Positions 4,308-40,350 of a DNA stretch of 64,000 nt are shown here, piece after piece. Within the stretch, counting starts at the first letter, position 1. Every line of letters begins with the position of its first letter. The stretch spans positions 87,009-151,008 of the forward strand of contig CAZCCD010000001.1 in assembly GCA_964497435.1 (NCBI GenBank), in the 5' to 3' direction. The position numbers and the translations under genes were made by a program. Below the pieces are notes generated by a model. The model did no database searches, had not been told where the DNA came from, and worked only from the letters and a program-made list of their open reading frames with translations. Source of the DNA: Candidatus Woesearchaeota archaeon. GTDB taxonomy: Archaea; Nanobdellota; Nanobdellia; Pacearchaeales; GW2011-AR1.

Positions 4308-4308
4308 T

Positions 4309-9208: not shown

Positions 9209-10423
9209 TTGTTTTATATGAAAATGAAAAAACTGGTGATTTTATTATTAATTTTAATATTAGTTAATTTAGTAAGCGCTGAATTTGATGTTTACAGTGT
9301 ATCAGAAGAAGAATTAGCTGCAGGAGTTCAAAAAGATCTAAAGCCAGGAGACCAGGCAAAGTTTGTCCATGAGGGCCAAGAATATTATTTATATATTAAT
9401 ACTGTTTATAGCAAAACAGTAGGAATATTAGTTTCTTCAAACAAAGAGCAGTATCTTGGTTTAGAGGGAAATGTAAATCCAAATGAAAGAAAATTTGAAC
9501 TTAATTTTGACGAATATTATGATCTATCTATAAAATTGGATACAATTAGCATATCTAAAGAAGATTCAAGAGTGATTCTAACAATAAAAAGAGTCCATGA
9601 ACTAGTACCTGAAAATACAATTCTTCCATATTCGTGCTTTGAGGCATATGCATGCGATAATGGGAAAAAACTAAATTTATGCAAGCCAGTGAATACAACT
9701 GTTAATTCTCCTTGTAGATGCAGGCCTGTTTCTGATTTAGAGTGTGAAGAAGAGGTGGGTGAGGAAGGAATAGAAGTATCAACAGAGAGTACAGATGATA
9801 CAAACGAAACTAGTGCTATTTGTGGTAATGAAATATGCGAGCCAGGAGAAGAAAGTGATCCTGGTGGTTGCGGTCCAGATGCAGATCCATCTTGTTTAGG
9901 ACCGCCAGCCAGCGAAGGAAGTTGTCCAGAAGATTGTGATGAGGTAGAAGAAGGAAAGATAAAATTAGGAGTAATTCCTAAGGCTGATTGTCCTACTGAC
10001 TGTCTTTGTGATGGCATAACAACTAAGTGTTTTTTTGAAAATGGGAGAGAAATGACAATTCTTGCCGGAGAATCAGGAAATATAATTATCCAATCTAAGA
10101 CAGCTGAAATGAGGACAAGTGTTGAATTGTATAAAAATGGAAGCAAAGTCATAGGAAATTTTGAAGATGGAGAAAAAGAAATAAGAATCTTCCCTGATGA
10201 TGTCAAGAATTTAGTCGAAGAAAAAGTAAAGGCTATAATGGAAGAGCAAAAAATGACCCTAAAAGAAGATGGAAAATATTATTTTAGTGCAAAAAAGAAA
10301 GCAAAGTTCTTATTTATATTAAATGTAAATGAAAGAATAAAGGCAGAAATAGACTCGAATACAGGTGTTATAAAAATAAAGAATTCAATTTTCAATTTTT
10401 TGTCTAATGATATTGAAAGATAG
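9209..10423 (+). CDS. secreted Cys-rich protein, paralog 2 of the tandem triplet
   Basis: It has a signal peptide. The C-terminal block CPTDCLCDGITTKCFFENGREMTILAGESGNIIIQSK…KAKFLFILNV is homologous to paralogs 1 and 3. Confidence 0.5.
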   Translation: MFYMKMKKLVILLLILILVNLVSAEFDVYSVSEEELAAGVQKDLKPGDQAKFVHEGQEYYLYINTVYSKTVGILVSSNKEQYLGLEGNVNPNERKFELNFDEYYDLSIKLDTISISKEDSRVILTIKRVHELVPENTILPYSCFEAYACDNGKKLNLCKPVNTTVNSPCRCRPVSDLECEEEVGEEGIEVSTESTDDTNETSAICGNEICEPGEESDPGGCGPDADPSCLGPPASEGSCPEDCDEVEEGKIKLGVIPKADCPTDCLCDGITTKCFFENGREMTILAGESGNIIIQSKTAEMRTSVELYKNGSKVIGNFEDGEKEIRIFPDDVKNLVEEKVKAIMEEQKMTLKEDGKYYFSAKKKAKFLFILNVNERIKAEIDSNTGVIKIKNSIFNFLSNDIER

Positions 10424-10453
10424 ATTTATAAAAAGCAAAAAATACTATATATT

Positions 10454-11212
10454 ATGAAAATAAAGGGGGTTTTATGTATTTCATTAATTCTCTTGTCTAT
10501 TCTAGCAGTTATTATTGCAGAGGAAAACGAAAGCGGAGTAATTCTCAATCCTACTAATGACACAAGAATCTGCTGCAAGATTACAGAGACAAGGGCTAAT
10601 TTAGGAGACGAGATTGTTAAATACCTTTTAGTTGATGAAGGCTTGTGTGTGACTCCAAGAGTCGGAGGAATAATAACAAAAGAAATTGTCGATAAATCTC
10701 TATGTTTAAAGGATGAGGATGAAAAAAGAACCCAGTTAAGAGAAAGAATTAAAGCATGGGTTGAAGGAGAAGAGTGCCCAAGGAGTTGTATATGTCAAGG
10801 AGTTACAATGAAATGTGAGATTGAAGGAGGCAGGGAAATGACTGTTTATGCTGGCAAATCAGGAAACATAATAATCCAGGTAAAAGGAGTAAATGTAAGT
10901 ACTGAAGTAACTCTTTATAAAGATGTTACTGGAGAACTCTATGGTAGTTTTGAAGATGGAGAAAGAAAAATAAAAGTTCTCCCAGATCAGGTCGAAGAAT
11001 TAATAAAAGAAAAAGCACAAAAAAGTATAGAAGACACAAAAGCAGAGCTTGATGAAAAAGGCATTTACAAGGCAAATGCAAAGAAAAGAGCAAAGTTCCT
11101 TGGATTTATTCCTGTTAAAGAAACAGTAAGAGCAAGAATAAATTCAGATACAGGAGAAATTAAAAAGTTTGGCAATTCTTGGTGGGGTTTTTTGGCGAGG
11201 GATATGAAATAG
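10454..11212 (+). CDS. secreted Cys-rich protein, paralog 3 of the tandem triplet
   Basis: It has a signal peptide. The C-terminal block ECPRSCICQGVTMKCEIEGGREMTVYAGKSGNIIIQVKGVN…RAKFLGFIPV…NSWWGFLARDMK is shared with the other two. Confidence 0.5.
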   Translation: MKIKGVLCISLILLSILAVIIAEENESGVILNPTNDTRICCKITETRANLGDEIVKYLLVDEGLCVTPRVGGIITKEIVDKSLCLKDEDEKRTQLRERIKAWVEGEECPRSCICQGVTMKCEIEGGREMTVYAGKSGNIIIQVKGVNVSTEVTLYKDVTGELYGSFEDGERKIKVLPDQVEELIKEKAQKSIEDTKAELDEKGIYKANAKKRAKFLGFIPVKETVRARINSDTGEIKKFGNSWWGFLARDMK

Positions 11213-11272
11213 TAAGAGTTTATTTATTTTAAACTTATAAGTCTTTATAAATCCTCGTACTCTTTTTATAGA

Positions 11273-11602
11273 ATGCTTGATCCAAACAAAATCAAAAAGA
11301 AGGTGCCAGTTAATGATTTTATAACCTTAATAAGAAAATATGTTCCTGAGAAAATTGAAGATAGCGGTCATGCTTTTAAGAGACTTAGTCAAAGGCAAAG
11401 AGAATTATTTAATATCGAGGAAATATGCAATATTTTGCTTAAAGATAGACCTTTTCTTGTAGGAATTCAAGAAAATAATAATTATGCTGTCTTTTATAAA
11501 CATCAAGGCAAGAATCTAAGAATGATAATAAAATTGGAATTCCAAAAGGTTAAAATAGTCACATTTTATTATGTATTAGAATGGCAAATACCAAAAATAT
11601 GA
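11273..11602 (+). CDS. DUF4258-like small protein (toxin-like member of a DUF4258/DUF2283 pair)
   Basis: It shows the 'HAFKRLSQRQ…I..I' pattern and a C-terminal 'LRMIIKLE…VKIVTFYYV' block, both typical of DUF4258. It overlaps the downstream gene. Confidence 0.4.
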   Translation: MLDPNKIKKKVPVNDFITLIRKYVPEKIEDSGHAFKRLSQRQRELFNIEEICNILLKDRPFLVGIQENNNYAVFYKHQGKNLRMIIKLEFQKVKIVTFYYVLEWQIPKI

Positions 11603-11979
11603 CAGGTAAAGAAAGAACATTAGAAGCAGAAGGAGAAATGGATTATGATTATGTAAATGATATTCTGCTCTTTAAAGTAAAAGATAGAGGGTATGATTTT
11701 TCCATAGAATTTAAAAATATGGTGATAGACATAGATAACGAGCAATTTATTGTTGGAATTCAGATTTTTGATGCCTCAAAATTCCTAAAAATAAGCAAAG
11801 AACACTTAAGAAAAATTACAAAATGGCAATTTAAGGCGAGACTTCAAGAAAATGAATTCAGAATTGATCTATATTATCAAGTAGTAGTCAGGAATAAAAT
11901 TATCAATAATAATATTTATCCAATTATTGTCCAGCAGGATGTAGATTTACCTAGCCCCCAGATGGTTACCACGGTTTAG
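11581..11979 (+). CDS. DUF2283-like small protein (partner of the upstream gene)
   Basis: 'MDYDYVNDILLFKV…FIVGIQIFDAS' matches the DUF2283 pattern (YD.e.D.L.i….ivGIEIl.AS). Confidence 0.4.
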   Translation: MANTKNMTGKERTLEAEGEMDYDYVNDILLFKVKDRGYDFSIEFKNMVIDIDNEQFIVGIQIFDASKFLKISKEHLRKITKWQFKARLQENEFRIDLYYQVVVRNKIINNNIYPIIVQQDVDLPSPQMVTTV

Positions 11980-12053
11980 ATTTTTATTATCTTTTAAGTA
12001 CAAAAATAGATAAGAGGGAAAGGGTTTACGATTAAATATTCTAAATGTTTTTT

Positions 12054-13919
12054 TCAAGCCACACTCGTTGTCGTAGAACTCGCCTTTTTTATGTAATTCA
12101 TGACTTGAGTGTAAGTGTAAGCATCGTATTGACTGTTAGCCGAATTTGTTGTAACACCAGAACAAACTAATGGTGCTGGTCCGCCTTTAAAGATATAATT
12201 AACAAGATAAATTATATCTGATGCTGTTATAGTACCTGTACAATCCACATCTCCATTGCTCATGACAGGCAGAGGAGCTGGTCCTCCTTTAAAGATATAA
12301 TTAACTAGATAAATAATGTCAGCACTTGTGATTACGCCATTGTTATTAACGTCTCCTCTTACATAAGAAGGAGAAAATGTCACTTGTTTAACATCTTCAT
12401 TATTTCCATCATTGCTTTCTATCTTTATATTATCCTCATCAACTTTAACACTAATATTATAGGTAGTATTGGTAGAAGAGGTAAAAAGCACATTAATAAC
12501 TTTATTTGAGTTTGCATCTACATCAATTATCTGTTCATAATACGGAGTAGGATTAGAATTTACATAAAACCTAACAGAAGCTCCAAAAACATCAGTGTCT
12601 CCGTTATTAAAAACTGTTCCGATTAAGTTGATTGTATCATTAACTAAAGGCGTTGAGTTTGAAAATGTCAGGACAGGATTTAGGTCAGGGTACCAATCTA
12701 AATCAGTAAAATTGCGCACGCCCCAGCCAGGTCCTGAAGGTCCGTCGTATCTCCATATAGGTTTAGTTTGGGTTTCAAAGTCAGTATGCCCTATAGCTTT
12801 TCCAAATAAATCAATAACAACTGTATCAGCATGATAATTTGGTGCAGGAGGAGCATACCAATCCATCGTTTTGTAAAGAACTTCATTATTATTATCTATT
12901 ATATTATAAAAATTATTCCAGTCTAAATTATAATCGTCTCTTAACATAGAAAACATCCAGGCCGTAATATCGTAACCAGAACTATTTTGAATTTCATTAT
13001 TATTAACTGTTGTATCATGATAATCATTATTTACATAATCTTGCCAATTAAAAGCACTTGTACCTTGATAAATAGAATCATCAGCAGTTTGTTGTGTTAT
13101 AATCCCATTATTAGATAAAATATTATACTGATTATACTGTGAAAATCCCTCTGTAAGCCAAGGTCTAACAAAAATTGGTAAGGGGTTGATGGCGTGCAAT
13201 GACTCATGAATAGCTCCAGCCATATAAAACCATCTTTCGCATTTAGAATCATCATAGAATGGGTCAGATAAATAAAGATTGGCTTCTGCTGGTAAAGCTT
13301 GCCCCCACCAACATACATTTGTAGGATGAACATAAATTTTTAGTCTAACGCCATAAAATTTTTCAGAGCTCCATTTAGTCAAGTCTTTTAAATCTATAAA
13401 GTTCCCTTCAAAAGAATTAAAAAATTCAGTTAGATTATCCTCATTGTTATCAAAAAAAGGTTGATCTATATAAACATCAAAATCAGCATAATTTAATATT
13501 TTTGGATCGGTTGTGGTTGTATAGACAACTTCATCATCGACTTCTACTCCAATCGGTTTATCCACAATAAAAGGAATCTCTCTTCCATCAACATAAAAAA
13601 TCTTTTTGTCATAATCAACAGTCATCTTAAAGCCGTTTGTTCCTTCAATCACTTTTATATTCGGAAAAGTTGTTGTTGCAGTTCCAACTTCTTCTTCACC
13701 GATAGTTGTTTCTGGTTCTTCTGTTTCAGGAACTATATAGGAATCTATGACTTCTCTCTCAAAAAGTTGTAATTGGTTGTTTCCTGTAAGTGTCTTGACT
13801 ATTCTTTGTGAAAGTGTTGTGTCTTCTGCCTTGCTGTATTGAATCATGAAAATAAATGTACTATTCAGTACCAAAAGCACAGATATTAACACTGCCAGCA
13901 ACCATATGTCTTTTTCCAT
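12054..13919 (-). CDS. secreted zincin metalloprotease with tandem C-terminal dockerin-like repeats (type B)
   Basis: It has a signal/TM N-terminus and an HExxH motif (AIHESLHAI). Near the C-terminus '[28 protein letters not shown]' is followed by a second copy '[28 protein letters not shown]'. Confidence 0.55.
12168..12356 (-). other. dockerin-like module (type B: two DxNxxG…[17 protein letters not shown] repeats)
   Basis: It is a Ca-loop-like [12 protein letters not shown] segment plus an amphipathic helix, duplicated. The same module is present in the 48781..53301 product. Confidence 0.5.
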
Positions 13920-14123
13920 TTTCAGCTATTATTTTATAGGTATTTAATCTATTTAAAAGTTTTGGGGTTATAGGTTTTGTTTATCAAAGGATTTCAGTAA
14001 AGCCGGTTTACTTAAACTTAATCATTAAAAATATTTGAAAAAATAAATGCGGAATTTATTGTTATTATTTTATAGTGATAAACATAAAGAAAGATTTATA
14101 AATAAAAAAATACAACAAATTGT

Positions 14124-15260
14124 ATGTTAGGGCCATACATTGCAAACATAGATGGAACAATCACATATAGGGGGAATAAAATTTTCCCAAGGCTAGATAA
14201 TATCAACTCATACATATTTCCAGTAAAAGAAATTGAAAAGAGGGTAGATTCATTAAAAAATAGTGAGATTTGGACTCGTATAGCAAAAATAAACCATCAA
14301 ATAAACATTGCTATAAACAAATATTTCCATAAAAAGGGTGCCTTTTTCACACTGTTACCTTTAACAACGAGAATGATCTCATCTCCCGGAGCAGTTTATG
14401 GAAAAGAAACAATAAACTACACAACAGATACTCATCCAATGAGCCTCAAATGGTTTGATATATCAAAAGATGTCTTTTTATCAGAATCTTCCCAAATTTA
14501 TTTGGAACTATCTCTAATTCAAAAAGGAATTAATCATGTTTATTCGATTTACAACTCGTTCCGAAAAGAAAAATCAGATAGTACACATCTCTCAGAATTT
14601 CATCACGTGGAATATGAAGGAAAAATAAATCAAGAAAAAAACGAGGAAACTGCACTTGAATTAGTTAAAGAAATATTAGAAAGGTTATTAAAAGAAAACA
14701 AAGAAGATTTAAATTTTTTTTTAACTAAAGAAAAAATACAAGAATTGAAAAATTTATCAGAACAAATTTCGCAAATTCCTATAATAACTTTTAGAGAGGC
14801 TTTAAACTTACTTTACAAAGAAACAAAAAATGAAAAGTATAAAGAATTCACTTTAAAAAATTTTGGGATGTGGGAAGAGATAAAGATAACTGAAATTTTA
14901 GGAGGTATGGTAATTATTAAAGAATTTCCTTTACTTGAAGTACCTTTTTATCACGAAGTTGTAAAAAATAAAAGACCATTTGTAGCAAATAATGCAGATA
15001 TAATTTGGCCAGGGTATAGAGAGTTTATCGGAAGCGGGCAAAGGATTAGATCAGAAAAAGAGCTTCATGAAAAGGCTAAGATTTTTAAATTACCAAAAGA
15101 AGATTATGAACCATATTTAAAGATAAGAAGATATTTCGATTATGAGTCGACATCTGGTTTTGGATTGGGATGGGAAAGAATGCTTCAAGGACTTTTAGAA
15201 ATGCCTTTTATTTGGAGTATTACTCAATTCCCGAGAACCGATAGGAGTTTAAAGCCTTAA
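14124..15260 (+). CDS. AsnA-like / AsnRS-AspRS catalytic-domain paralog (class II aaRS core without anticodon-binding domain)
   Basis: It carries the class II motifs: motif 2-like FRKEKSDSTHLSEFHHVEYEG, the GSGQRI(R) block and motif 3-like GFGLGWERMLQG. There is no N-terminal OB fold. Its stop lies 1 nt before the next start. Confidence 0.6.
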   Translation: MLGPYIANIDGTITYRGNKIFPRLDNINSYIFPVKEIEKRVDSLKNSEIWTRIAKINHQINIAINKYFHKKGAFFTLLPLTTRMISSPGAVYGKETINYTTDTHPMSLKWFDISKDVFLSESSQIYLELSLIQKGINHVYSIYNSFRKEKSDSTHLSEFHHVEYEGKINQEKNEETALELVKEILERLLKENKEDLNFFLTKEKIQELKNLSEQISQIPIITFREALNLLYKETKNEKYKEFTLKNFGMWEEIKITEILGGMVIIKEFPLLEVPFYHEVVKNKRPFVANNADIIWPGYREFIGSGQRIRSEKELHEKAKIFKLPKEDYEPYLKIRRYFDYESTSGFGLGWERMLQGLLEMPFIWSITQFPRTDRSLKP

Positions 15261-15261
15261 A

Positions 15262-16527
15262 ATGGAATCTTTTTACGGAAGAATTAAGGGAAGAAGAGAT
15301 CATGGAAAAGTAGTCTTTTTAGATGTATCAAGAGGAAATTCAAACCAGCAAATTGTAATTCAAAAATCTTCTTTCAAAAAAAATTATGAAAAAGCAAAAA
15401 GAGAATTACAAATTGGAAACATAGTTAGGATTGAAGGAGAATATTTTATATCTAGTTCCGATGTAAAAACTTTAAATGTTCGCACATATGCTATTTTAAC
15501 TTATTGTTACGATGCAGATCCATTAAAATCAGAAATTAAGTCTGAAGAAAGAAGAAGAAATAGAGGGTTAGATATATTAACAAGTAATGAATCTTTCAGC
15601 AGATATACCAATATAGTAAAAATAAATAAAGCTATCAGATTATATTTATATGAAAGAGGGTTTTTAGAAGTAGAAACCGGAATATTAAAGGAAACAACAG
15701 ATACATCAAAAGCTGATGATTTTACAACAAAGGCTAATTGGAACAATCAACGTCTATATCTAAGAAAATCGACAGAACAAAGATTAAAACAACTCTTAGC
15801 AGGAGGTCTAGAGAACATATTTGAAATGGGCAAAGTATTTAGGAATGAAAGTGTAGGAAGAGATTTTTCTCCAGAGTTTACTGCCCTCGAACTTTATCAA
15901 TCATATGCTACCTACAGAGAAATGTTAGAAATAGTTAAGGGGATTCTAAGCAGATTAAACGAAGTTGTTGGAAAACCAAAATCAAATCCAAGTGATTTTG
16001 AAGAGGTTATGTTTTATGATTTCTTGAGTGAAAGAACAGGAATAGATGTAATATCAACAGACACAGAAAAATTGGTTTCAATTACTCCTCAACATAAAAG
16101 AAAAACATACCCAGATAAAATTGGAAGAAGAGGATATATACTAAATGATCTATTTGAGAGTGTTATAAAAGAAACAAGAGATAAAAATTTAACAATTACA
16201 GGTTACCCTAAAGAGATCAATATATTAAGTAGAGAAATGGAATCAGATTCGACACTCTCTGAAGAATTTAGAATGTATGTTCGAGGTAGATCATACTGCT
16301 ATGGATGTACCGAACTTACTGATTACTTTGAACAAGAAAGAAGAATAAAAGCGCAAGCTGATTTTTTGGGAAAGCCAATCGATAATTTAGATCCTTCTTT
16401 CATTAAAATGCTTAAGATAGGACTACCTCCTTGCGCTGGGTTGGGATTAAGTTTAGAAAGGCTTCAAATGATATACTTAAATTTAGAGGATGTCAGAGAT
16501 GCCATCACGTTTCCGCTGCAAAGATGA
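15262..16527 (+). CDS. compact class II lysyl-tRNA synthetase-like protein (LysRS-II/AspRS-family; N-terminal OB fold + catalytic core)
   Basis: The N-terminal 'HGKVVFLDVSRGNSNQQIVIQ' is an OB-fold signature. Motif 2 'FRNESVGRDFSPEFTALELYQSYATY' resembles LysRS FRNEG..NPEFT..E.Y.AYADY. Motif 3 'GLPPCAGLGLSLERL…VRDAITFP' resembles LysRS GLPPTAGLGIGIDRL…IRDVILFP. Confidence 0.6.
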   Translation: MESFYGRIKGRRDHGKVVFLDVSRGNSNQQIVIQKSSFKKNYEKAKRELQIGNIVRIEGEYFISSSDVKTLNVRTYAILTYCYDADPLKSEIKSEERRRNRGLDILTSNESFSRYTNIVKINKAIRLYLYERGFLEVETGILKETTDTSKADDFTTKANWNNQRLYLRKSTEQRLKQLLAGGLENIFEMGKVFRNESVGRDFSPEFTALELYQSYATYREMLEIVKGILSRLNEVVGKPKSNPSDFEEVMFYDFLSERTGIDVISTDTEKLVSITPQHKRKTYPDKIGRRGYILNDLFESVIKETRDKNLTITGYPKEINILSREMESDSTLSEEFRMYVRGRSYCYGCTELTDYFEQERRIKAQADFLGKPIDNLDPSFIKMLKIGLPPCAGLGLSLERLQMIYLNLEDVRDAITFPLQR

Positions 16528-17360
16528 GATTGGAAAAATTAACACCAAAAGATATTGAAAAATTAAGTTATAATGAAATAATAGGAATTATAAAAGAAAC
16601 AAATAGACCTCCTGGAGGAAAAAATTCAATATTTGAAATAATGAATAGATGCTTCATTAATCAAAATAGCAAAATACTAGAAGTTGGAACAAGTACAGGC
16701 TTTACTGCTTTAGAAATTAGTAAACTTGTCCGTTGCAAGATAGTCTCTATAGATATAAATGAAAATAGTTTAAATGAAGCGAAAAAGAGAGCTTCATTTG
16801 AAGGTTTTGATAATATCTCTTTCGTCAGAGCAGATGTTAATAATCTTCCTTTTAAAGATATGTCCTTTGATTTAGTTATAGTAGGGAATGTTTTTTCTCT
16901 AATGAAAAAAAAAGAAAAAACGCTTAAAGAATGTTTAAGAGTTTGTAAAAAATCTGGGTTTATTGCTGCAATACCAATGTATTATTTAACTAAACCCTCT
17001 AAAAAATTGGTAAATGAGGTATCTAATGCAATAGGAATAAAAATAACCCCCTTGTATAAAAGAAATTGGAATGATTTTTTCAGTACTCCTCAAATTAATA
17101 TATATTGGGATAAAGATTATAAATTTGATTATATAAAAAATAAAGAAATTGATAATTTTGTTAAAGAAATTTTGTCAAGAGAACATCTTAAAAGATTAAA
17201 AAAAGAAAGTATGAACTTATTGACAAAGAAGTATAAAAATTATATGCTTTTATTTAGGGATAATTTATCTAAAATGGGTTTTAGTATAATTTTATTAGAA
17301 AGAAATAAAATATGGGAGGATAAAGAACTTTTTACATCTAAAGAGATTACTAATAAATAA
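16524..17360 (+). CDS. class I SAM-dependent methyltransferase
   Basis: Motif I is ILEVGTSTGF and motif II is FDLVIVGNVF. The likely true start is the ATG at 16524, which overlaps the upstream stop as ATGA; the track start at 16431 is over-extended. Confidence 0.6.
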   Translation: MRLEKLTPKDIEKLSYNEIIGIIKETNRPPGGKNSIFEIMNRCFINQNSKILEVGTSTGFTALEISKLVRCKIVSIDINENSLNEAKKRASFEGFDNISFVRADVNNLPFKDMSFDLVIVGNVFSLMKKKEKTLKECLRVCKKSGFIAAIPMYYLTKPSKKLVNEVSNAIGIKITPLYKRNWNDFFSTPQINIYWDKDYKFDYIKNKEIDNFVKEILSREHLKRLKKESMNLLTKKYKNYMLLFRDNLSKMGFSIILLERNKIWEDKELFTSKEITNK

Positions 17361-17364
17361 TAAA

Positions 17365-18222
17365 ATGGAAATAATAGAAAAAAGGTTATCTAAGGATGGA
17401 AGCATTAAATATGCTTTTAAAGTTCCAAATGGGATAGTTGAGGCTATATATTTTAATTTTAAAGGAAGATATGGTAATGATTCTGTTTCTTCTAATGTAA
17501 TTTGTTTATCTTCTCAAGTTGGATGCACATATAGTTGTTCTTTTTGTGAAACAGGTAAAATTCCTAAAGTAAGAAATTTAACAAAGGAAGAGATGGTTGT
17601 ACAGGTAGATTTAATACAAGAAGATTTGGAAACACATCAGAAAAAAAGAGCAGATTATTATGCGTTAATGGGAATGGGAGAACCGCTGGTTAATCTAAGA
17701 AATGTTTTGGGTTTTTATCATCAAGAAAAATCTCAAGTTAGAGGCATATCCCTCTCAACGGTGGGAGTTGTACCAAAAATAGATAGTTTATCAAGTGATC
17801 CTGATGTAGATTTTGTTTTGTATATTTCGTTGCATACACCATATAATGATCAGAGAAAGAGACTAATATCTTCTAGGTGGATTTGGTCGGTAGAAGAGAC
17901 CCTCTCAGCAGGGAAAAGATATTCAGCAAAAAAAAATAGAAGAACCGGATTAACTTATATGTTAATTCCTAATGAAAACGACTCTGTCCAACATGCAAAA
18001 GATTTAGTGAAATTAATAGATCCTAATTATTTTTTTGTTCAATTGACATGTTTTAATTCAGGAGAAAATGTTCAATCTGATAGAAATGCGTTTGTTGATT
18101 CTTCCAGGTTATTTATGAAAGAAATAAGTAAAAAGGGAATTATTTGTGATATACAGTTAAGTAAAGGAGTGGATGTAGAAGGGGGGTGTGGTCAACTTTC
18201 TGGAAGGTTGTCTAGTAATTAA
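17365..18222 (+). CDS. RlmN/Cfr-family radical-SAM methyltransferase-like protein, N-terminally truncated (285 aa)
   Basis: 'SSQVGCTYSCSFCETG' is a CX3CX2C motif that aligns with RlmN SSQVGCALxCxFCST. MGMGEPLVNL (RlmN MMGMGEPLLNL), LSTVGVVP (LSTSGVVP), YISLHTP (AISLHAP), TYMLIPNENDS (IEYVMLD.VND) and the C-terminal GGCGQLSG (the RlmN catalytic Cys, AACGQLAG) all align as well. Confidence 0.75.
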   Translation: MEIIEKRLSKDGSIKYAFKVPNGIVEAIYFNFKGRYGNDSVSSNVICLSSQVGCTYSCSFCETGKIPKVRNLTKEEMVVQVDLIQEDLETHQKKRADYYALMGMGEPLVNLRNVLGFYHQEKSQVRGISLSTVGVVPKIDSLSSDPDVDFVLYISLHTPYNDQRKRLISSRWIWSVEETLSAGKRYSAKKNRRTGLTYMLIPNENDSVQHAKDLVKLIDPNYFFVQLTCFNSGENVQSDRNAFVDSSRLFMKEISKKGIICDIQLSKGVDVEGGCGQLSGRLSSN

Positions 18223-18229
18223 TTTAGTT

Positions 18230-19243
18230 TTAATCTAAAATCTCGAAGTTATTTTTCCATGAATTCAATATTACCTTTGCTCCTAGAGGGATCGTAATTT
18301 GGGGGTCAGTATGACCTATATCTGCACCAAACAATATGGGAAAATTATAAGAACTGGTTCTCTCAATAATTTTTTCCTTTAATTTTTTTGTGTCTTCATC
18401 ACTATATCTAAAAGGCCTACCAACAATCATTCCAGAAATTTCATTAAATACGCCAGTTAACTTTAAATCTTGGAGATATGCGTCAATAGTGGAAAGGGGT
18501 TCTCCTTCATCAAATTTTTGTCCTTCAGGTATTTCCCAAAAAAATATTTTATTTTTATAATCTGGCCAGTATTCAGTTCCTCTCAAATGAACTATTGAAG
18601 ATATACACCCCCCTATTATCTCCCCTACAGCCTCTCCTTCTTTTATCCATTCGAAACCTTTGTTTTTTCTCATTTTCCTTGGTCTAGTTAAATCTAATTT
18701 TTGGCTCCAGTCTAATAATTCATCAGTCCATTCTTCTGATGGAAGTATTTTACCTATATTATCTTCAACTATCGCTTTGTTGAAATATTTTAATGTATAA
18801 GTCAATGGTTTTGGATATTCTCCAAATTGTGTCATTGCACATGGTCCATAGTAAGTTATCAACTTAGATTTTGTATGTATAGCGTAATGCAACACACTTA
18901 CATCAGAATACCCACAAAAAATTTTAGGATTTTCTCTTATCTTTTCAAAATCTAGATAATCCAAGGTTTGATTAGCAACTTCTCCACCAATAGAACAAAT
19001 TATTGCATTAACTTTTTTATCTGTGAAGGCATCCATTATATCTTTAGCCCTATCTTTAGCAGGAGCTGATTCCCAACCATTCGTCTTTCTAGTACAAGGG
19101 AATTCTTTTATTTTATACCCCAAAAATTTTAAGAAATTTATAGCGTTATCTAATCTATGTGGAAAAATAGCCGCAAGTCCGGCAGACGGAGAGATTATTG
19201 CTATACTATCTCCTTTTCTTAATTTTTTAGGTTTTGTTAACAT
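18230..19243 (-). CDS. S66 LD-carboxypeptidase family protein (LdcA/MccF-like)
   Basis: 'LRKGDSIAIISPSAG' is the GDxIxxxAPSS N-terminal signature. GYSDVSVLH is the catalytic-Ser GYSDxT-like motif and GADIGHTDP the catalytic His. At 337 aa the length is MccF-like. It is convergent with the aaRS-like operon. Confidence 0.7.
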   Translation of the reverse strand: MLTKPKKLRKGDSIAIISPSAGLAAIFPHRLDNAINFLKFLGYKIKEFPCTRKTNGWESAPAKDRAKDIMDAFTDKKVNAIICSIGGEVANQTLDYLDFEKIRENPKIFCGYSDVSVLHYAIHTKSKLITYYGPCAMTQFGEYPKPLTYTLKYFNKAIVEDNIGKILPSEEWTDELLDWSQKLDLTRPRKMRKNKGFEWIKEGEAVGEIIGGCISSIVHLRGTEYWPDYKNKIFFWEIPEGQKFDEGEPLSTIDAYLQDLKLTGVFNEISGMIVGRPFRYSDEDTKKLKEKIIERTSSYNFPILFGADIGHTDPQITIPLGAKVILNSWKNNFEILD

Positions 19244-19587
19244 AAATTAATCATAAAAACAAGATATAAAAATCTTCCTAACTTTTTATTCAAACATGAA
19301 AAAAAGCCCCTCCATTTATCACAGACAGAAAAAGAGCATTGTTTTTTGATTTAGACATTCTGTTTCCATTTTTTACCTCTCCGTTTCCATAATATTTAAT
19401 AGTAAACTCTTTGAACGGAATTTCTTTATTTAAAGCTTTTTCTAATACTTTTCTTAAGAGTTATTTCCTATCCTTAAATAAAATTTAAATTAATTCCAAC
19501 TTATATAAATTGTTCTCTTTTTACTCTATTTTAACAACTATTTCAAAAAATAATAACCTTTAAATATATCTCTTTATTATATTGAAC

Positions 19588-21933
19588 ATGAAAGGAAAAG
19601 AGGTAGGTAGTAGAATTTTAGTTATATCATTCATAATAATATTAACTTTATCTATTGTATCTGCAAGCTTTCTTGGAAACCTTTTAAAAGCATTAACTGG
19701 AACAGGGAGAGCAGTGGGAGGAGGTGCCTGTACAGACAGTGATGGACAAGGGAATTTTAACGTTGGAGGTTACGTAACTAAAGATGGAGTAGTATATTAC
19801 GATTATTGTGCTGGAAGTGCTGCTTATGATTATTACTGCCCAATAGGGGGCGATATAGGTGATGATGTAGGTGATACTTCACCACCAACAAGTGGTGCTG
19901 ACGTTGTTCTGTCTTTAGTAAGAGATTCTATAACAGGCGCTGCATCGAGTATAACAGGTGCTGTTGTAACTCCACCACCAACAAGTTCAATAGATTGCAG
20001 GACTTTTGGCCAGGGGATAACTTGTATTGGAGGAGGGCAATGTGGGTGTGTAGATGGAACAACAAAAACCTGCGGCCCCATAGAAGGAAATGAAGGAGAA
20101 TGTAATTTAGGAACTACAACATGCACAAATGGAAATTATCCTTCCTCATGTCAAGGAGCTATATATCCTGTATCTGAAACATGTAATGGCCTCGACGATG
20201 ATTGTGATGGAATAAGAGATGATGGAAATTTGTGTCCGAGTGGATATACGTGTAGTCCTACAGCTAAAACATGTGTTCTTCAAGTTGGTGGAGGTTGTAC
20301 TGATTCTGATAATGATACTTATAGCATAAACGGAGGGAATTGTGGAACTATCGACTGCAACGACAATAATGCAAACATTAATCCAGGCGCAACAGAAATA
20401 TGTGGGAATGGTATTGATGAAGATTGCAGTGGGGCAGATTTAACATGTCCTCCTAACACTATAACTTACTATTGTGATACTGATAGAGATGGATTCAAAA
20501 ATAAAATTGCATCTGGAACATGCAATCAAGGATCGACAGGGTGTCCTCCACTAGGATGTATTTCTACACAAGGAAATGACTGCAATGATAATAATGATGC
20601 CATAAATCCAACAGAGGACGAAATTTGTGATGACAATATTGACAATGATTGTGATGATGATGTAGATGATGATGATTCAGAATGTTACATACCTCCTCCA
20701 GAATGCTTTGATTCTGACAGAGACGGATATGGAAAAGCAGGCTCAACAGGATGTTTAAAATCAGGAATTGATTGTAATGATATTGAAGGATCTGGAGAGA
20801 ATATAAATCCCGGAGAAGAAGAAGTTTGTGATGGAATAGACAATGATTGTAATACCAATACTATAGAAGGCAACATCCTTGATGTTGTAACCTGCCAGCC
20901 CTTAAACAAAAATGCAGGTGGAGCTTGTTTATCAATTTCTATAAAGTGTGTTTCTGGAACAATGGAAACATGTACATCTAAAGGATATTTAAATCCAGCC
21001 TCTACAGAAAACAAAAATGATGACATAGACAATAACTGCGATGGAACAGTTGATGAAGGTACAGAATGCAGCACTAATGGAGAAACAAAATTCTGTAACA
21101 CAGAATGCGAGCCAGGAAAACAAACTTGTGTTAATAAAGAGTGGGGGCAGTGTGTTCTTGATTCTAATCCAGACCTTCCTTCTTCATGCACTAACAGAGA
21201 ATGTACTCCAGGTAATTCTGCGGTCTGTGGGACAAATCTCGGAGCATGTATGGTCGGCTTAAAAACCTGTGACAGTGTTGGAAAGTGGGGGGGGTGTGAA
21301 GGAGACATAGGTCCTGAAACAGAGATCTGCAATGACGGAGTTGACAATGATTGTGATGGTTTTGCTGATGGAGAAGAAATAGATTGCGGAGGAGATAGAG
21401 GAACAGCAGCAGGCACAGATGACTCTGGAACTATTGGAGAAGAAGGAGAAGAATCATCAATAGAGCAAGGAACACCTACAACATCTGAAGATATTCAAAG
21501 ACAAAAGAAAATAGAATGGACAAAAAAATCATTCTTTCAAAAAATATGGTCGGTAATACTAAGCATATTCAATGTAGGAAGAAGTGTTCTTGGAAATGTT
21601 GTAGCAGAAACAGCTGATATACACTGCAGCGATTCTGACAGAGGGAAAGACTATTTCAACAAAGGAACAGGAAGTGGATTAAATGCACAAGACGAAGAAA
21701 TATGGTTTGTTGATTTCTGCTACCAAGAAAATCAAAACAACCAGGTTGAAAAATGCGGAGGAGATGATTGCTTCTTGAAAGAATATGCATGTGATAATCC
21801 TTACGTTAATGCAGAGACAGAAATAAAATGTCAGTACGGATGCATAAATGGGGCATGTGTCCCTGACGCAAGTTTAAGTGACAGCTGCATATACTTTGAT
21901 AAAGAAACCTGGAAATGGATGAATATTTGTTGA
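19588..21933 (+). CDS. secreted Cys/Asp-rich protein with many MopE-like putative metal-binding repeats
   Basis: It has a signal peptide, then about 8 repeats of C..D.D.DGY….CG..DCND.N..I.PGA.E.C..G.D.DC.G. A hydrophobic segment lies near residue 640. Confidence 0.5.
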   Translation: MKGKEVGSRILVISFIIILTLSIVSASFLGNLLKALTGTGRAVGGGACTDSDGQGNFNVGGYVTKDGVVYYDYCAGSAAYDYYCPIGGDIGDDVGDTSPPTSGADVVLSLVRDSITGAASSITGAVVTPPPTSSIDCRTFGQGITCIGGGQCGCVDGTTKTCGPIEGNEGECNLGTTTCTNGNYPSSCQGAIYPVSETCNGLDDDCDGIRDDGNLCPSGYTCSPTAKTCVLQVGGGCTDSDNDTYSINGGNCGTIDCNDNNANINPGATEICGNGIDEDCSGADLTCPPNTITYYCDTDRDGFKNKIASGTCNQGSTGCPPLGCISTQGNDCNDNNDAINPTEDEICDDNIDNDCDDDVDDDDSECYIPPPECFDSDRDGYGKAGSTGCLKSGIDCNDIEGSGENINPGEEEVCDGIDNDCNTNTIEGNILDVVTCQPLNKNAGGACLSISIKCVSGTMETCTSKGYLNPASTENKNDDIDNNCDGTVDEGTECSTNGETKFCNTECEPGKQTCVNKEWGQCVLDSNPDLPSSCTNRECTPGNSAVCGTNLGACMVGLKTCDSVGKWGGCEGDIGPETEICNDGVDNDCDGFADGEEIDCGGDRGTAAGTDDSGTIGEEGEESSIEQGTPTTSEDIQRQKKIEWTKKSFFQKIWSVILSIFNVGRSVLGNVVAETADIHCSDSDRGKDYFNKGTGSGLNAQDEEIWFVDFCYQENQNNQVEKCGGDDCFLKEYACDNPYVNAETEIKCQYGCINGACVPDASLSDSCIYFDKETWKWMNIC

Positions 21934-23600: not shown

Positions 23601-26600
23601 TTATCCATTATCAATGTTTTCCTGGACTTTAACTAGATCAGTGACATAATCTCCTGGTTGGAGTTTTACGACTCTAACACCTTGTGTAGCTCTTCCCATG
23701 ACTCTAATGTTTTTTAAAGAAGTTCTTATGACTATTCCTTTTGCAGTTGTAATAATTATTCCATCAGAATCATTGACAGAGACAGTATTAACAACCTCTC
23801 CTGTCTTGTCAGTGACTTTAAGATTGATTACTCCTTTGCCCGCCCTTGCTGTTTTTCTATAATCATTAACAGCTGTTCTCTTTCCATAACCTTTCTTAGT
23901 TATTGTGAAAACAGCCTCTGTCTTTAAAATTTCAAGGCTAACAACGCTATCATTGTCAAGCTTTATCCCTGTAACACCATAACTAGCTCTTCCCATATCT
24001 CTAACTTCTTCTTCATTAAATCTTATTGCTTTTCCTTTTTTAGTCGCTATCAAAACTTCCTGTCCTTTCTTAACAACTTCAACACCAACAAGCTCATCAG
24101 TATTGTCATTAGGAAGGTTTATTGCCCTTACTCCAGAAGCCCTTGGTTTTGAAAAATGTTTCAAAGATATTTTCTTAACCATTCCTTTTTTAGTAACCAT
24201 AAACAAATAATAATCAAAATTCTTTATAGAAATAACATTTGTTATTGCTTCGTTGCTTAACTTCACCATATTCACTATTGCTTTCCCTTTACTATATCTT
24301 TCAACTTCAGGAACATCATAGGCCTTAAGCCATAAAACCCTGCCTCTTGTTGTGAAAAATATTAAATAATCATGAGTAGAACAGTTTATTAATTGCTTTA
24401 CAAAATCTCCTGTAGCCAAATTGCTTCCTATTACTCCTTTCCCTCCTCTTTTCTGCTCTTTATAAGCTTTAACATCCATTCTCTTACAATATCCCTTATC
24501 AGTTATTGTAACTACTATCTCTTTTTCTTGGACCAAATCTTTCTCAGAAATTTCAGAGATTCTTTGTAAAACCTGGGTCCTTCTTTTATCACCGTATTTG
24601 TTTTTCAGTTCTGATGTTTCTTTAATAATTATCTTCAAAATTTCGTTTATATCTCCAAGAATTTTTTCAAGCTCTGCAATTCTCAATTTTAAATCTTCTG
24701 ACTCTTTCTTCAATTTATCTCTTTCAAGAGTTGTAAGCTGTTGAAGTTTTGTTTCCAAGACAGCTTGAGCCTGTTTTTTAGTCAGCTTGAATTGATTAAC
24801 TAAGGCATCTGAGGCTTCCAAAACCCCTTTGGATTTCTTTATAGTTACTATTACTTCATCTATGTTTTTTAATGCAATCAAAAGACCCTCGACAATTTCC
24901 TGCCTTTCCTTGGCAATTTTCAACTCAAACTTAGTTCTGTTTGTAACCATTAATTTTCTGTGATTGACAAAAGCCTCAAGAACTTCTTTTATATTAAGGA
25001 CTATTGGTTCTTTTCCAACAAGCGCGAGAAAATTAACATTAAAACTATCTTGAAGTCTCGTGTATTTGTAAAGCGCATTCGTAATAAACTTTGGATTAGC
25101 ACCTCTCCTTAATTCAATAACAACTCTTATATCTCCTTTAGAACTCTCGTCCCTTAAATCAGCAATATCTTTTATTTTTTTATTCTGTATAAGATTCGCA
25201 ATTTCTTCAATAAGAAAGCTTTTATTTAACATATAAGGAATCTCTGTTACAACAATTGCTTCTTTTCCTCTTATATTTTCTATAGTTGTCTTTCCTCTTA
25301 CAATTATTCTACCTCTTCCTGTCTTATAAAGCTCAAGCATGTCTCCTTGAATTAAGCCTCCAGTAGGAAAATCAGGCCCTGATATTATCTCACATATTTT
25401 CTCTATTGAAATTTCTGGATTTTTTATATAAGCATTAATTGCGTCGCAAACTTCAATTATGTTATGTGGAGGAATGTTTGTGGCCATGCCAACAGCAATT
25501 CCTGAAGCTCCGTTAAGGAGGAGTGTTGGTAGTTTTCCTGGTAGTAATTCTGGCTCTTTTAAAGAATTGTCAAAATTAGGCAAGAACTTAACAGTTTCTT
25601 TTTCAATATCTTGAAGAAGCTCCATAGTTATAGACATTAATCTTGCTTCAGTGTTATGGCTTATGAATCCATTTGATATAAAAGAATGACAATTACTATC
25701 TACTTTTATAGAATAGACTTTTTGTTTTTCTGTTTTTTCAACAGAAACAATTCTATCAAACAAATATTGGTAAGTTAAAAAATATTCAAATAAAGATTTA
25801 AGGTTAATTCCTGTCCTTTTTAATACAATAGAGGAAATCCTTTGATAATTTTGTCTCATATTAGAATACCTATCAAAATTATGCTTCACAACAAATTCAT
25901 TATCAGAATATTTCGCTAATCTTCTAATAAAATCTGATAAGAATGGAACGAAGTCCTTGGAAGAATATTCCTTTTTATATAATAAAAGAGCAAATTCTAA
26001 TTTTTTATTTTTTCTCTCAGATAAAAATCCTAATTCTTTATAAAATCTTAAAAAATTTCTTTTTCCTCTTATTTGTAGAAGATGTAAATTCTTATATTTA
26101 TCATATCTCTTAAACGAATCTATTCCAAACCTCAAAAGAGATGTTTGCATTATTCTGATTATTTCTTCGCTTGTTGAGCAAAGTCTTATTTCCATGAATT
26201 TTTTTGAGTAACTAATGTTTCCTTCACCTTCGTAAAAAATTCTTATAAAGGTTGAAATAATCTCTTTAGGGGATTTTAAGATTAACAAAGGAATCTTTTT
26301 TTCTTTTGATTTAACAGGCTCTAATCCTATATTTTTAAGGAATTCTATAGTATGCCTGCAATGACACTCAAGTCTATAATATTCTTTTTTTCCGAAAGAA
26401 GAAGGTTTTCTTTTAAATTTATGTAATTTACTATCGGGAAAAACCCTATCCCATCTTGTTTGAAGTTCTGTTATCCAAGGCTCATCAACGTTACAAAATT
26501 CTATTTTATTTTTAGAAATTGAGCCTTCCGAGATAAAAGAAGCCAAAATAAAAGCTACATTTTCATCTAAAAATTCTGGAAGAATTCTTTTTTTTGTTCT

Positions 26601-27347
26601 GTTATTTTTTGCAACAGGATAATATTCTTTTAATTCAATTTTTTGTTTTGGCCAAAAATCATCTTGAAGTCTATCAAGTACAACAACGTCTCCTTCTCTT
26701 ATCTGCTCTAAGGTTTTCCACATAAAAATAGGTCTCTTAAATTCATCAGTAGCTATTGTCAAAACGGGGTGATTATAACTTCCCATCAAAGTATAACCTT
26801 TGTCTGTAGCTATTTTGATTGTTTCGTGTTCACCAGAATCAAACCATTTTGAAACATTATTTACTTTTTTGTCTTTTGAAAGAACTCTTACTTCTTTATC
26901 AGATATTTCATCAATTCTTATTAAGCCTTTGTCTGTTAAAACAAGAGAGTCACCGCTAACACAATACCTGTAAGCAGCAGGAGGATCCCCATCAATTGAT
27001 CCAAAATTTCCCTGACCAAAAACAAGAGGATATCTCAATGAAAAATCCTGCGCCATTCTTACTAAAGCATCGTAAACAGCTGTATCTCCATGCGGATGGA
27101 ATTTTCCAATAACATCGCCAACAACTCTTGCTGATTTTTTTGTTTGAGTCCCTGGTTTTAGGCCCATTTGGTTCATTGCATAAAGAATTCTTCTTTGCAC
27201 AGGCTTTAATCCATCTTCTACAGAAGGTATCGCCCTTGAAACAATTACAGACATGGCATAATCTAGGTAAGCTTTCTTAACTTCTTCAGATATCTCTGTA
27301 TTAAAAATGCCTTTTTCTAATTCTTTCTGATTTAATTCTTCTGCCAT
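23601..27347 (-). CDS. gyrA: DNA gyrase subunit A, interrupted by an intein
   Basis: The N-extein ends …[16 protein letters not shown] (active-site Tyr region) and the C-extein begins TEARLMSI… then continues with the typical GyrA beta-pinwheel C-terminal domain. Removing the insert leaves 811 aa of extein. Confidence 0.9.
25653..26963 (-). mobile_element. GyrA intein (about 437 aa) with LAGLIDADG-type homing-endonuclease region
   Basis: It starts with Cys right after AAYRY ([13 protein letters not shown]) and ends …FISHN, followed by the +1 Thr. An internal LASFISEGS block is LAGLIDADG-like. The insertion site is the classical gyrA site adjacent to the catalytic Tyr. Confidence 0.75.
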
Positions 27348-40260: not shown

Positions 40261-40350
40261 ATTCTACCTCTTATATATTATATTAATAGTGGAAATTTCC
40301 CTTTATTAATCTTATTGTCTTATAACTTATCTATTAATAAAACTACAATG

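Follow-up and report, generated by a model that had tools for sequence, protein, structure and literature searches.

A predicted gene cluster of the agrocin 84 and microcin C kind in a Candidatus Woesearchaeota archaeon

Agrocin 84, microcin C and the archaeal locus

Agrocin 84, a product of Agrobacterium/Rhizobium rhizogenes K84, mimics an aminoacyl-adenylate: it is an N-acyl phosphoramidate and inhibits an aminoacyl-tRNA synthetase (aaRS; PMC8323819). We describe here five genes, called g1 to g5, which occupy positions 14124-19243 of a stretch of 64,000 nucleotides (the window) from a DPANN archaeon, Candidatus Woesearchaeota archaeon (assembly GCA_964497435.1, contig CAZCCD010000001.1, positions 87,009 to 151,008). 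To judge from sequence comparisons, these genes probably form a cluster of the agrocin 84 and microcin C kind, which would make a stable aminoacyl-adenylate mimic and protect the producing cell from it. The product would most likely be a modified adenosine nucleotide in N-acyl phosphoramidate form, able to block an aaRS.

In the agrocin 84 plasmid pAgK84, the first agn operon carries in this order agnA (annotated 'asparagine synthetase A'), agnB1 (a methyltransferase-domain gene) and leuS (agnB2); the S66 peptidase gene lies in another agn operon. The agnA gene encodes a truncated homolog of asparaginyl-tRNA synthetase (AsnRS) devoid of the anticodon-binding domain (PMC4392301), for which a role in joining an acyl-amide to AMP via a phosphoramide bond has been proposed (PMC8323819). 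The agn loci, agnA included, are needed for agrocin production (PMC8323819, PMC4392301). AgnB2 is a resistant leucyl-tRNA synthetase (LeuRS) that gives self-immunity, and the methionyl-tRNA synthetase (MetRS) genes of actinobacterial agn-like clusters have been read as AgnB2-like immunity genes (PMC8323819). For microcin C, a two-ATP succinimide route to the N-P bond is established for MccB (2025 review), and MccD moves the 3-amino-3-carboxypropyl group of S-adenosylmethionine (SAM) onto the phosphoramidate oxygen (PMC12596934). In the literature that we searched, agn-like clusters are described only from Rhizobiales and Actinobacteria; neither a link of agrocin-type clusters to DPANN archaea or to the Candidate Phyla Radiation (CPR), nor a description of the biochemistry of an AgnA-type enzyme, was found there.

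All five open reading frames (ORFs) and their junctions, as they had been given in a preliminary description of the window, were borne out by the sequence. Genes g1 to g4 are tightly packed on the forward strand. The g1 stop codon (TAA, 15258-15260) is separated by one nucleotide from the ATG of g2 at 15262, the g2 stop overlaps the g3 start in an ATGA at 16524-16527, and four nucleotides lie between the g3 stop (17358-17360) and the ATG of g4 at 17365. The g4 stop (18220-18222) faces the stop of the convergent g5 gene (18230-18232), with 7 nucleotides between them. The start of g3 was placed at ATG 16524, and not at the upstream TTG 16431, because homologs align from residue 1. A TATA-box-like element, TTTATAAATA (14095..14104, forward strand), about 20 nucleotides before the g1 ATG, was read in the sequence; it is weak evidence for a putative archaeal promoter of a g1-g4 operon.

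The gene set resembles the agn system in several respects. AgnA, an anticodon-less AsnRS-like enzyme, is directly followed by AgnB1 (42% identity to g3). The agn cluster also includes an S66 peptidase, an embedded extra aaRS gene (agnB2) and a radical SAM enzyme. The two systems also differ. AgnA is only 26% identical to g1, which belongs to a sister family of its own. AgnB2 is a full and active LeuRS, whereas the aaRS-like protein of the window is a remodelled lysyl-tRNA synthetase (LysRS)-like protein in which both acidic metal ligands are replaced. The radical SAM enzyme and the amidohydrolase of pAgK84 are unrelated to g4 and to the cluster amidohydrolase family F6, respectively, and the SDR, amidohydrolase, PhyH and radical SAM proteins of pAgK84 have no counterpart among the five cluster proteins of the window. 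A likeness to the agnC operon beyond the S66 gene was considered and rejected, as the pAgK84 amidohydrolase, dioxygenase and radical SAM enzyme are unrelated to that amidohydrolase family or to g4. Finally, agrocin 84 has the AgnG exporter, whereas the window has no transporter, and the hosts are a rhizobial bacterium in one case and a DPANN archaeon in the other.

The likeness to microcin C bears on g3 and g5. The g3 protein resembles MccD, and g5 resembles MccF, whose catalytic triad and Trp186 it shares; mccF is also convergent with its operon, and genes for GNATs, an MccE-like decarboxylase and an MccH-like HIT protein occur in relatives of the window cluster. The chemistry of microcin C centres on an Asn/Asp-derived N-P-adenylate, as that of the window cluster may do. 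Microcin C synthesis uses the ThiF/E1-like MccB, in place of which the window cluster has an aaRS-derived enzyme; no ThiF domain was found by Pfam in the five cluster proteins, and no MccA-like mini-ORF ending in Asn in either intergenic region flanking the cluster. The MccC exporter is again without equivalent in the window.

In NCBIfam searches the proteins scored well below the curated cut-offs of the families they resemble: g1 had 163 bits against AsnRS, its best profile (cut-off 414), g2 280 bits against class II LysRS (cut-off 468), g4 193 bits against RlmN (cut-off 290) and g5 77 bits against the LdcA equivalog (cut-off 378). By these scores, the cluster proteins are diverged paralogs and not the standard enzymes of these families.

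Core genes and the cluster family

The g1 gene (14124..15260, forward strand) encodes a 378-residue protein, a predicted AgnA-type, AsnRS-like adenylating enzyme. Pfam recognized only the tRNA-synt_2 core (residues 39-372), and no OB domain. The first reading of g1 as an AsnA-like core without an anticodon domain was thus right about the missing domain, but AsnA scored less than AsnRS (106 bits, cut-off 389) and the relatives of g1 are of the AgnA type. Homologs of g1 (more than 120 protein clusters, 58-71% identity) are almost all 378 residues long; some databases label them 'asparagine--tRNA ligase'. The g1 protein matched AgnA of pAgK84 and AgnA-like plasmid proteins at 26-29% identity (87-114 bits), and its match to any genuine AsnRS (82 bits) was no better. 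A neighbour-joining tree of 28 class IIb catalytic domains was built with 100 bootstraps. The g1 family and the AgnA-like proteins were each monophyletic in 100 of 100 bootstraps, the two joined to the exclusion of AsnRS, aspartyl-tRNA synthetase (AspRS) and LysRS in 99, and a grouping of g1 with AsnRS was recovered in none.

Residue alignment indicated that g1 retains the motif 2 residues R147 and E149, the motif 3 arginine R352 and the acidic metal ligands D292 and E300; the AgnA-like proteins also retain the motif 2 and 3 arginines and both acidic ligands. An AsnRS-type side-chain pocket (L127/E128/E163/R307) is common to g1 and the AgnA-like proteins, where AspRS has K, Q and D. Both groups carry a derived 'SSP' loop in place of the '(P)EG' loop of AsnRS and AspRS, which we take to close over the adenylate as well as the acceptor end of the tRNA. 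The closest structures to an AlphaFold2 model of g1 (pLDDT 75) were AsnRS catalytic cores. From these comparisons, g1 is probably an AgnA-type enzyme able to adenylate, with Asn or Asp bound in its pocket.

The g3 gene (16524..17360, forward strand) encodes a 278-residue protein with a class I SAM methyltransferase fold in profile searches, in line with its initial description as a SAM methyltransferase. Its best sequence match in the PDB was MccD (5fcd, 83 bits), the next methyltransferase scoring 48 bits, and it is 31% identical to Escherichia coli MccD over 186 residues. Identity to AgnB1 of pAgK84 is 42% over 268 residues, and full-length identities are 42-45% when AgnB1 is taken together with Xenorhabdus and Streptomyces homologs, each of which adjoins an AgnA-like gene. 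PADLOC defence profiles gave only a generic methyltransferase match, for g3. The protein is predicted to be an MccD/AgnB1-type SAM-dependent transferase; by analogy with these enzymes the group that it adds would be either methyl or 3-amino-3-carboxypropyl.

The g5 gene (18230..19243, reverse strand; 337 residues) encodes a predicted MccF-type serine peptidase, with the S66 N- and C-terminal domains detected by profile search. It matched MccF and MccF-like structures at 168-208 bits and LdcA at no more than 74 bits, and the S66 protein of the agrocin 84 plasmid at 202 bits. It carries equivalents of the Ser118/His311/Glu243 triad and of the adenine-stacking Trp186 (E. coli MccF numbering). Among 50 cluster-associated S66 proteins, the Ser118 nucleophile and His311 are present in all, position 243 is Glu in 40 and Asp in 10, and position 186 is Trp in 47, Phe in one and Tyr in one. 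W186 of MccF makes a stacking contact with the adenine of processed microcin C (PMC8323819). Both scores and active-site residues therefore place the S66 protein with MccF and not with LdcA, as had been proposed, and g5 appears to be a peptidase of the MccF type, shaped to bind an adenine nucleotide. In many relatives, the S66 gene is co-transcribed with, and often translationally coupled to, the methyltransferase gene; g5 could have a biosynthetic as well as a protective role.

The distribution of the cluster was examined in one genome per species, for 185,579 species. We found 97 g1 loci, sporadically distributed in both prokaryotic domains: in DPANN archaea, in the haloarchaea Natrinema and Haloarcula, in many CPR/Patescibacteria lineages, and in a few metagenome-assembled genomes labelled Bdellovibrionales or Gammaproteobacteria. 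The g1 family was absent from IMG/VR viral contigs. All neighbouring ORFs were clustered, and gene content was counted in the 42 loci, from DPANN archaea, CPR bacteria, haloarchaea and bacterial plasmids, that had at least 5 kb on either side of g1. A g3-type methyltransferase gene was present in 38 of these (90%), an S66 gene in 34 (81%), both in 33, and at least one further aaRS-like gene in 27. Because the methyltransferase and S66 genes accompany g1 so regularly, g1, g3 and g5 are the invariant core of a large cross-domain cluster family, in which g2 and g4 are accessory; the trio of AgnA-, AgnB1- and S66-type genes is the core of about 100 clusters in DPANN, CPR, haloarchaea and numerous plasmids of bacteria. 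Genomes that are just 39-55% identical share this gene set, with its order and orientation shuffled, so the cluster is more than a chance assembly. Conservation of the neighbourhood, which the preliminary description had put forward as a check, was thus observed for the gene set, with order shuffled. The four packed genes that it had treated as one operon unit are indeed contiguous, but the conserved unit is the three-gene core with swappable add-ons. Its proposal of a synthesis-plus-immunity module for an aminoacyl-nucleotide gains support from the homology to AgnA, AgnB1/MccD and MccF and from this conservation.

The accessory genes are varied. They include bacterial-type prolyl-tRNA synthetase (ProRS)-like genes, frequently as tandem pairs, in which the INS editing domain is missing, and LeuRS-like genes that lack the CP1 editing domain and have intact HIGH and KMSKS motifs. 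HIT-domain hydrolases occur in 14 loci; MccH-like HIT proteins confer immunity (PMC8323819). Other loci carry Amidohydro_2 proteins, Orn/Arg-decarboxylase-like proteins that correspond to the N-terminal half of MccE and GNATs that correspond to its C-terminal half, a B12-dependent radical SAM enzyme, a second methyltransferase, GT2, ATP-grasp, NIF3 and Fic proteins, and a divergent AsnC-type regulator. Because the core is constant while the genes for tailoring, export, regulation and hydrolases vary, we call this a biosynthetic gene cluster family.

Some of these genes could also serve resistance without synthesis. The locus would then be an island where MccF- and MccD-type enzymes inactivate or alter aminoacyl-adenylate antibiotics that enter the cell, with the aaRS-like proteins as insensitive spare synthetases or decoys. 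MccF and HIT proteins do protect non-producers from microcin C-type compounds, a spare aaRS is a classical device (PMC8323819), and symbionts that import metabolites would presumably meet Trojan-horse compounds. Several observations make this quite unlikely. First, g1 has no anticodon domain and its tRNA-acceptor loop is altered, so that it cannot replace AsnRS, and the agn loci to which it is related are those required for agrocin production. Second, g2 is devoid of the conserved catalytic metal ligands (see below). Third, the tailoring enzymes of relatives (radical SAM methylases, GT2, ATP-grasp, decarboxylase) and their exporters suit synthesis and not mere defence.

The LysRS-like and RlmN-like add-on

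The g2 gene (15262..16527, forward strand) encodes a 421-residue class II LysRS-like protein. The preliminary description had called it LysRS-II-like; this was correct as regards its domains, an OB anticodon-binding domain and tRNA-synt_2 (Pfam), but the protein looks remodelled and unlike a normal LysRS. Structure comparison indicated a complete LysRS fold with the OB domain (TM score 0.83), without the N-terminal helix. Close homologs of g2 (41-62% identity, 419-438 residues) number only about 10 among 5.8 billion proteins, beyond which the next matches are ordinary LysRSs at 32% identity or less. At least seven of these homologs lie on contigs that match in size contigs carrying a g1 homolog or a partial g4 homolog, and two were confirmed to adjoin g1 in retrieved loci (L019 and L021).

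All 10 members of the g2 clade have Arg and Ser/Asn at the two acidic positions that are common to the other class IIb enzymes compared (g1, AgnA-like proteins, AsnRS, AspRS and LysRS), and the GGAxARPF loop is replaced by DTS(K/M). The motif 2 and 3 arginines are retained, as are the positions that presumably form the lysine pocket. Because the acidic positions and the GGAxARPF loop are replaced, canonical Mg-ATP activation by g2 is doubtful; binding of lysine, of an AMP moiety and of tRNA is plausible from the residues and domains that are kept. On this evidence g2 would be a rare, cluster-bound paralog and not a general housekeeping LysRS.

The latter point bears on another account of the locus, a housekeeping operon in which g2 would be LysRS, g1 AsnRS or an asparagine synthetase, g4 an m2A methylase, g3 an RNA or protein methyltransferase and g5 an unrelated neighbour. 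Each gene does have a translation-related family name, and the database label of some g1 homologs points the same way. On the evidence of the window and of related loci, we nevertheless regard this account as highly improbable: the scores are far below the family cut-offs, g1 groups with AgnA-type proteins and not with AsnRS, the g2 clade is very small and its members in retrieved loci adjoin g1, and g1 itself is present in so few of the species genomes. In addition, g5 is co-transcribed with the methyltransferase gene in many relatives, and the same core is found in free-living haloarchaea and on bacterial plasmids.

Altered aaRS homologs have been described in other clusters that make aminoacyl-adenylate mimics. 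AcmF of the ascamycin pathway, a truncated protein related to alanyl-tRNA synthetase (AlaRS), takes Ala from Ala-tRNA and attaches it to the sulfamate NH2 of dealanylascamycin, and SbzA of the SB-203208 pathway, related to isoleucyl-tRNA synthetase (IleRS), moves Ile from Ile-tRNA to a sulfonamide NH2; in both cases an aminoacyl group is placed on an -NH2 acceptor next to adenosine (PMC12945691). These enzymes provide a working model for g2. They differ from it in deriving from AlaRS and IleRS, in using sulfamate or sulfonamide rather than phosphoramidate acceptors, and in having no sequence kinship with g2 beyond aaRS class.

The g4 gene (17365..18222, forward strand; 285 residues) encodes a class A radical SAM protein of the RlmN/Cfr type. 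The RlmN profile matched over positions 70-344, and g4 aligned to residues 81-361 of E. coli RlmN, 280 residues in all. The cysteine motif CX3CX2C is present at C54/C58/C61, and both mechanistic cysteines have equivalents (C47 for C118, C275 for C355), so that g4 looks catalytically complete. The N-terminal RNA-binding domain of about 80 residues (PF21016) that full-length homologs possess is absent, as had been noticed from the ORF alone. Six g1 loci contain g4; every one of them also carries a LysRS-like gene, including the distant bacterial loci L073, L075 and L081, and a g2-type LysRS-like gene occurs in about 11-13 loci. The two genes are thus a rare, co-varying add-on. In L001 and L003, homologs with 45-50% identity to g4 belong to the same five-gene set, in another order and orientation; more distant ones are found outside agn-like clusters.

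Short RlmN-like proteins without the N-terminal domain were also observed as stand-alone genes (L009 7497-11387, L095 4468-8407, L096 4052-6997 and L008 2810-4556). These genes directly follow guanylate or adenylate kinase genes; other neighbours encode adenosine deaminase, a DNA-glycosylase-deaminase fusion, dNK, Ham1, NUDIX, HD and TauD proteins. Such purine nucleos(t)ide genes suggest that the short RlmN-like family acts on free adenine nucleos(t)ides, and these loci look like a separate, undescribed pathway for C-methylation of free purine nucleotides. Unlike RlmN and Cfr, g4 itself lies in a small-molecule cluster and has relatives beside nucleotide kinases and deaminases, a setting that points to a free nucleotide as its substrate. 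No report of an RlmN-type enzyme acting on a small molecule was found in the searched literature.

The simultaneous presence of a LysRS paralog and a radical SAM enzyme recalls the lysylation of EF-P, which pairs the same two kinds of protein. It could be imagined that the cluster serves the cell itself, its product being a non-toxic modified adenine nucleotide or an aminoacylated macromolecule that g5 recycles; candidates would be a nucleotide for signalling or storage, a cofactor, and a modified tRNA or translation factor, as with EpmA/EpmB and EF-P. The window has no exporter, DPANN genomes are small and secondary metabolism is rare in them, g2 has kept an OB domain of the tRNA-anticodon type, RlmN is known to act on RNA only in the searched literature, and the 58-71% identity within the g1 family is unusually high, which suggests strong purifying selection. 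Against this stand the match of the three core genes to enzymes of two antibiotic pathways, the exporters (DrrAB, MFS) and immunity-type genes (HIT, GNAT) of relatives, and a distribution that is sporadic and cross-domain rather than lineage-wide. Moreover, g4 has lost the RNA-binding domain and is of the RlmN type, not a lysine aminomutase, and most clusters have neither g2 nor g4; for these reasons EF-P-style lysylation was set aside. Own use in its various forms is in our opinion unlikely.

We return to synthesis of an adenylate mimic, for which the following steps can be proposed. The g1 enzyme would use ATP and an amino acid, probably asparagine because its pocket is of the AsnRS type, to form the N-P bond, perhaps through two-ATP succinimide chemistry like that of MccB. 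The phosphoramidate would then be decorated by g3, and g4 would C-methylate adenine C2 or C8 on the free nucleotide. The g2 protein would transfer lysine from Lys-tRNA to the phosphoramidate nitrogen, as AcmF and SbzA do with their amino acids, or would provide immunity in the manner of AgnB2. By cleaving the acyl-N bond, g5 would either detoxify the product in the producer or supply free adenosine phosphoramidate as an acceptor. The expected product is most likely, by analogy, a methylated N-lysyl-phosphoramidate adenylate mimic aimed at the LysRS of a neighbouring or host cell. The pockets of g1 and AgnA-type proteins are constant whichever aaRS-like partner is present, which argues that the core makes a common scaffold and that the aaRS-like module sets the amino acid; the existence of minimal three-gene clusters favours the same division of labour.

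This division of labour can be extended to a fully modular scheme. An AsnRS-derived enzyme may carry out MccB-like two-ATP chemistry on free asparagine, and the MccF-type peptidase may free adenosine 5'-phosphoramidate, a universal acceptor, onto which the aaRS module (LysRS here; ProRS-, LeuRS-, AlaRS- or MetRS-like elsewhere) may load an amino acid taken from aminoacyl-tRNA. The LysRS module of the window may do so without ATP activation, and the identity of the aaRS module would set which synthetase is poisoned. Taken jointly, a ribosome-independent triad, a swappable aaRS module, RlmN-type methylation of a free nucleotide and use by episymbionts make a tentative and rather doubtful combination.

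Several points weigh against synthesis of an adenylate mimic as the function of the cluster. The assignment of the LysRS metal ligands that are replaced in g2 is presumptive, being drawn from LysU structures and from conservation in the alignment, and the role of g2 is ambiguous: it might be a transferase, an immunity protein or a binding protein. The neighbour-joining tree was small, used a simple method and was built without archaeal AsnA or archaeal AsnRS references, and an identity of only 26-29% relates g1 to the AgnA-like proteins. The agnC, agnD, agnE and agnF functions of agrocin 84 (3'-deoxy sugar, dihydroxy-methylpentanamide and N6 glucofuranosyl phosphoramidate) are not in the window, equivalents of MccA and MccB are absent from its cluster, and no exporter, regulator, HIT or GNAT gene was found in the gene annotation of the window. 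Stand-alone MccF homologs are common in bacteria that have no biosynthetic cluster (PMC8323819). Finally, roles in the cluster are predicted from homology and gene context, and the reactions of AgnA and AgnB1 are themselves putative; the route by which the agrocin 84 phosphoramidate is installed is stated to be unknown (2025 review).

What appears new in this locus is an mcc/agn hybrid logic in Archaea, with an aaRS-derived adenylating enzyme, a LysRS-derived module and an RlmN-like tailoring enzyme predicted to be directed to nucleotides. The three-gene core offers a minimal system in which to address phosphoramidate installation in agrocin. The embedded aaRS-like genes (Lys, Pro, Leu, Ala and Met) allow targets to be predicted in the way that resistance genes do, and point to a reservoir of new aaRS inhibitors. 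If the proposal is correct, it would give the Archaea their first pathway of this kind, and episymbionts a candidate chemical weapon or tool for host control; the ultra-small episymbionts of the DPANN and CPR might direct such compounds at hosts or competitors. RlmN-type radical methylation would also be extended from RNA to free nucleotides, the first small-molecule substrate of this class.

Related clusters and other features of the window

Several related clusters are of interest in their own right. In Natrinema altunense (L056) and N. gari (L058), which are free-living haloarchaea, a DrrA/DrrB-type ABC exporter lies between g1 and the S66 gene (9995-14042), and an MccD-like gene is found about 3 kb upstream. 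Clusters of DPANN archaea contain tandem ProRS-like paralogs of the bacterial type, LeuRS-like genes and a HIT gene (L032 12998-15835, L083 9285-12532 and L016 2415-4783); one of the tandem ProRS-like paralogs scored near a true ProRS and the other far lower. We considered whether all accessory aaRS-like genes are catalytically dead and rejected this, since the LeuRS-like proteins keep HIGH and KMSKS and one ProRS-like protein scores as a near-normal ProRS.

On bacterial plasmids the trio has varied partners. The trio is accompanied by LeuRS, a ProRS-like gene, a nucleoside phosphorylase and an MFS transporter on a Xenorhabdus bovienii megaplasmid (L093 7837-18073), and by AlaRS, an AlaRS-related gene, an MFS transporter and ATP-grasp on a Peribacillus plasmid (L098 125-9382). 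A Bradyrhizobium symbiosis plasmid has a minimal AgnA-like/methyltransferase/S66 trio (L099 5886-9671), and a Pantoea plasmid a GNAT-AgnA-like fusion with an MFS transporter (L100 6353-9176). On a plasmid of Streptomyces sp. NBC_01707 (L094 7886-17595) the order is AgnA-like, MccD/AgnB1-like methyltransferase, FAD and molybdopterin genes, ProRS-type, S66 and P450, the FAD and molybdopterin genes being xanthine-dehydrogenase-like. For this last locus a candidate product is a prolyl-phosphoramidate with an oxidised adenine, and a phosmidosine-type product would suit ProRS-like clusters, L094 with its xanthine-dehydrogenase-like genes in particular; phosmidosine carries an 8-oxoadenine and an O-methyl group, and the presumed resemblance of L094 depends on these features. 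Phosmidosine, a nucleotide antibiotic made by Streptomyces, is an N-prolyl phosphoramidate; with its P-N bond it is a natural mimic of Pro-AMP (PMC6429109, PMC11229370). It is a prolyl compound, whereas the window cluster carries a LysRS-like gene and not a ProRS-like one. No biosynthetic cluster for phosmidosine was found in the searched literature.

The DNA of the window is archaeal, with a low GC content (~30%). Its other genes include those for aIF2-gamma, an archaeal D-aminoacyl-tRNA deacylase and gyrase with inteins, and close homologs of its genes are labelled Woesearchaeota, Pacearchaeota or Nanoarchaeota. Rfam and tRNA scans of the window gave no matches. Upstream of the cluster, two small overlapping ORFs of 109 and 132 residues, the second with a DUF2283 domain, lie at 11273-11979 and may form a toxin-antitoxin-like pair. 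A GGDEF-domain protein is encoded in this archaeal genome, where the adjoining gene has the thumb domain of DNA polymerase beta, and a HEPN protein and a minimal nucleotidyltransferase are encoded elsewhere in the window (3855-4899, 957-1463 and 45378-45953 for the GGDEF, HEPN and nucleotidyltransferase set); these genes may belong to toxin-antitoxin or nucleotide-signalling modules.

Inteins interrupt both gyrase subunit genes (23601-27347 and 28584-32147). The GyrB intein carries LAGLIDADG and HTH_3 domains, and the GyrA ORF, of 1248 residues, has an insertion of several hundred residues with GyrA-like sequence on either side. Very large Cys-rich or beta-helix secreted proteins are encoded at 1646-3718, 12054-13919, 19582-21933, 33516-43611 and 46011-47819, with dockerin, CARDB, MopE-type metal-binding and GH123 domains among them. 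Such proteins are typical surface equipment of episymbionts, and two of their genes flank the cluster.

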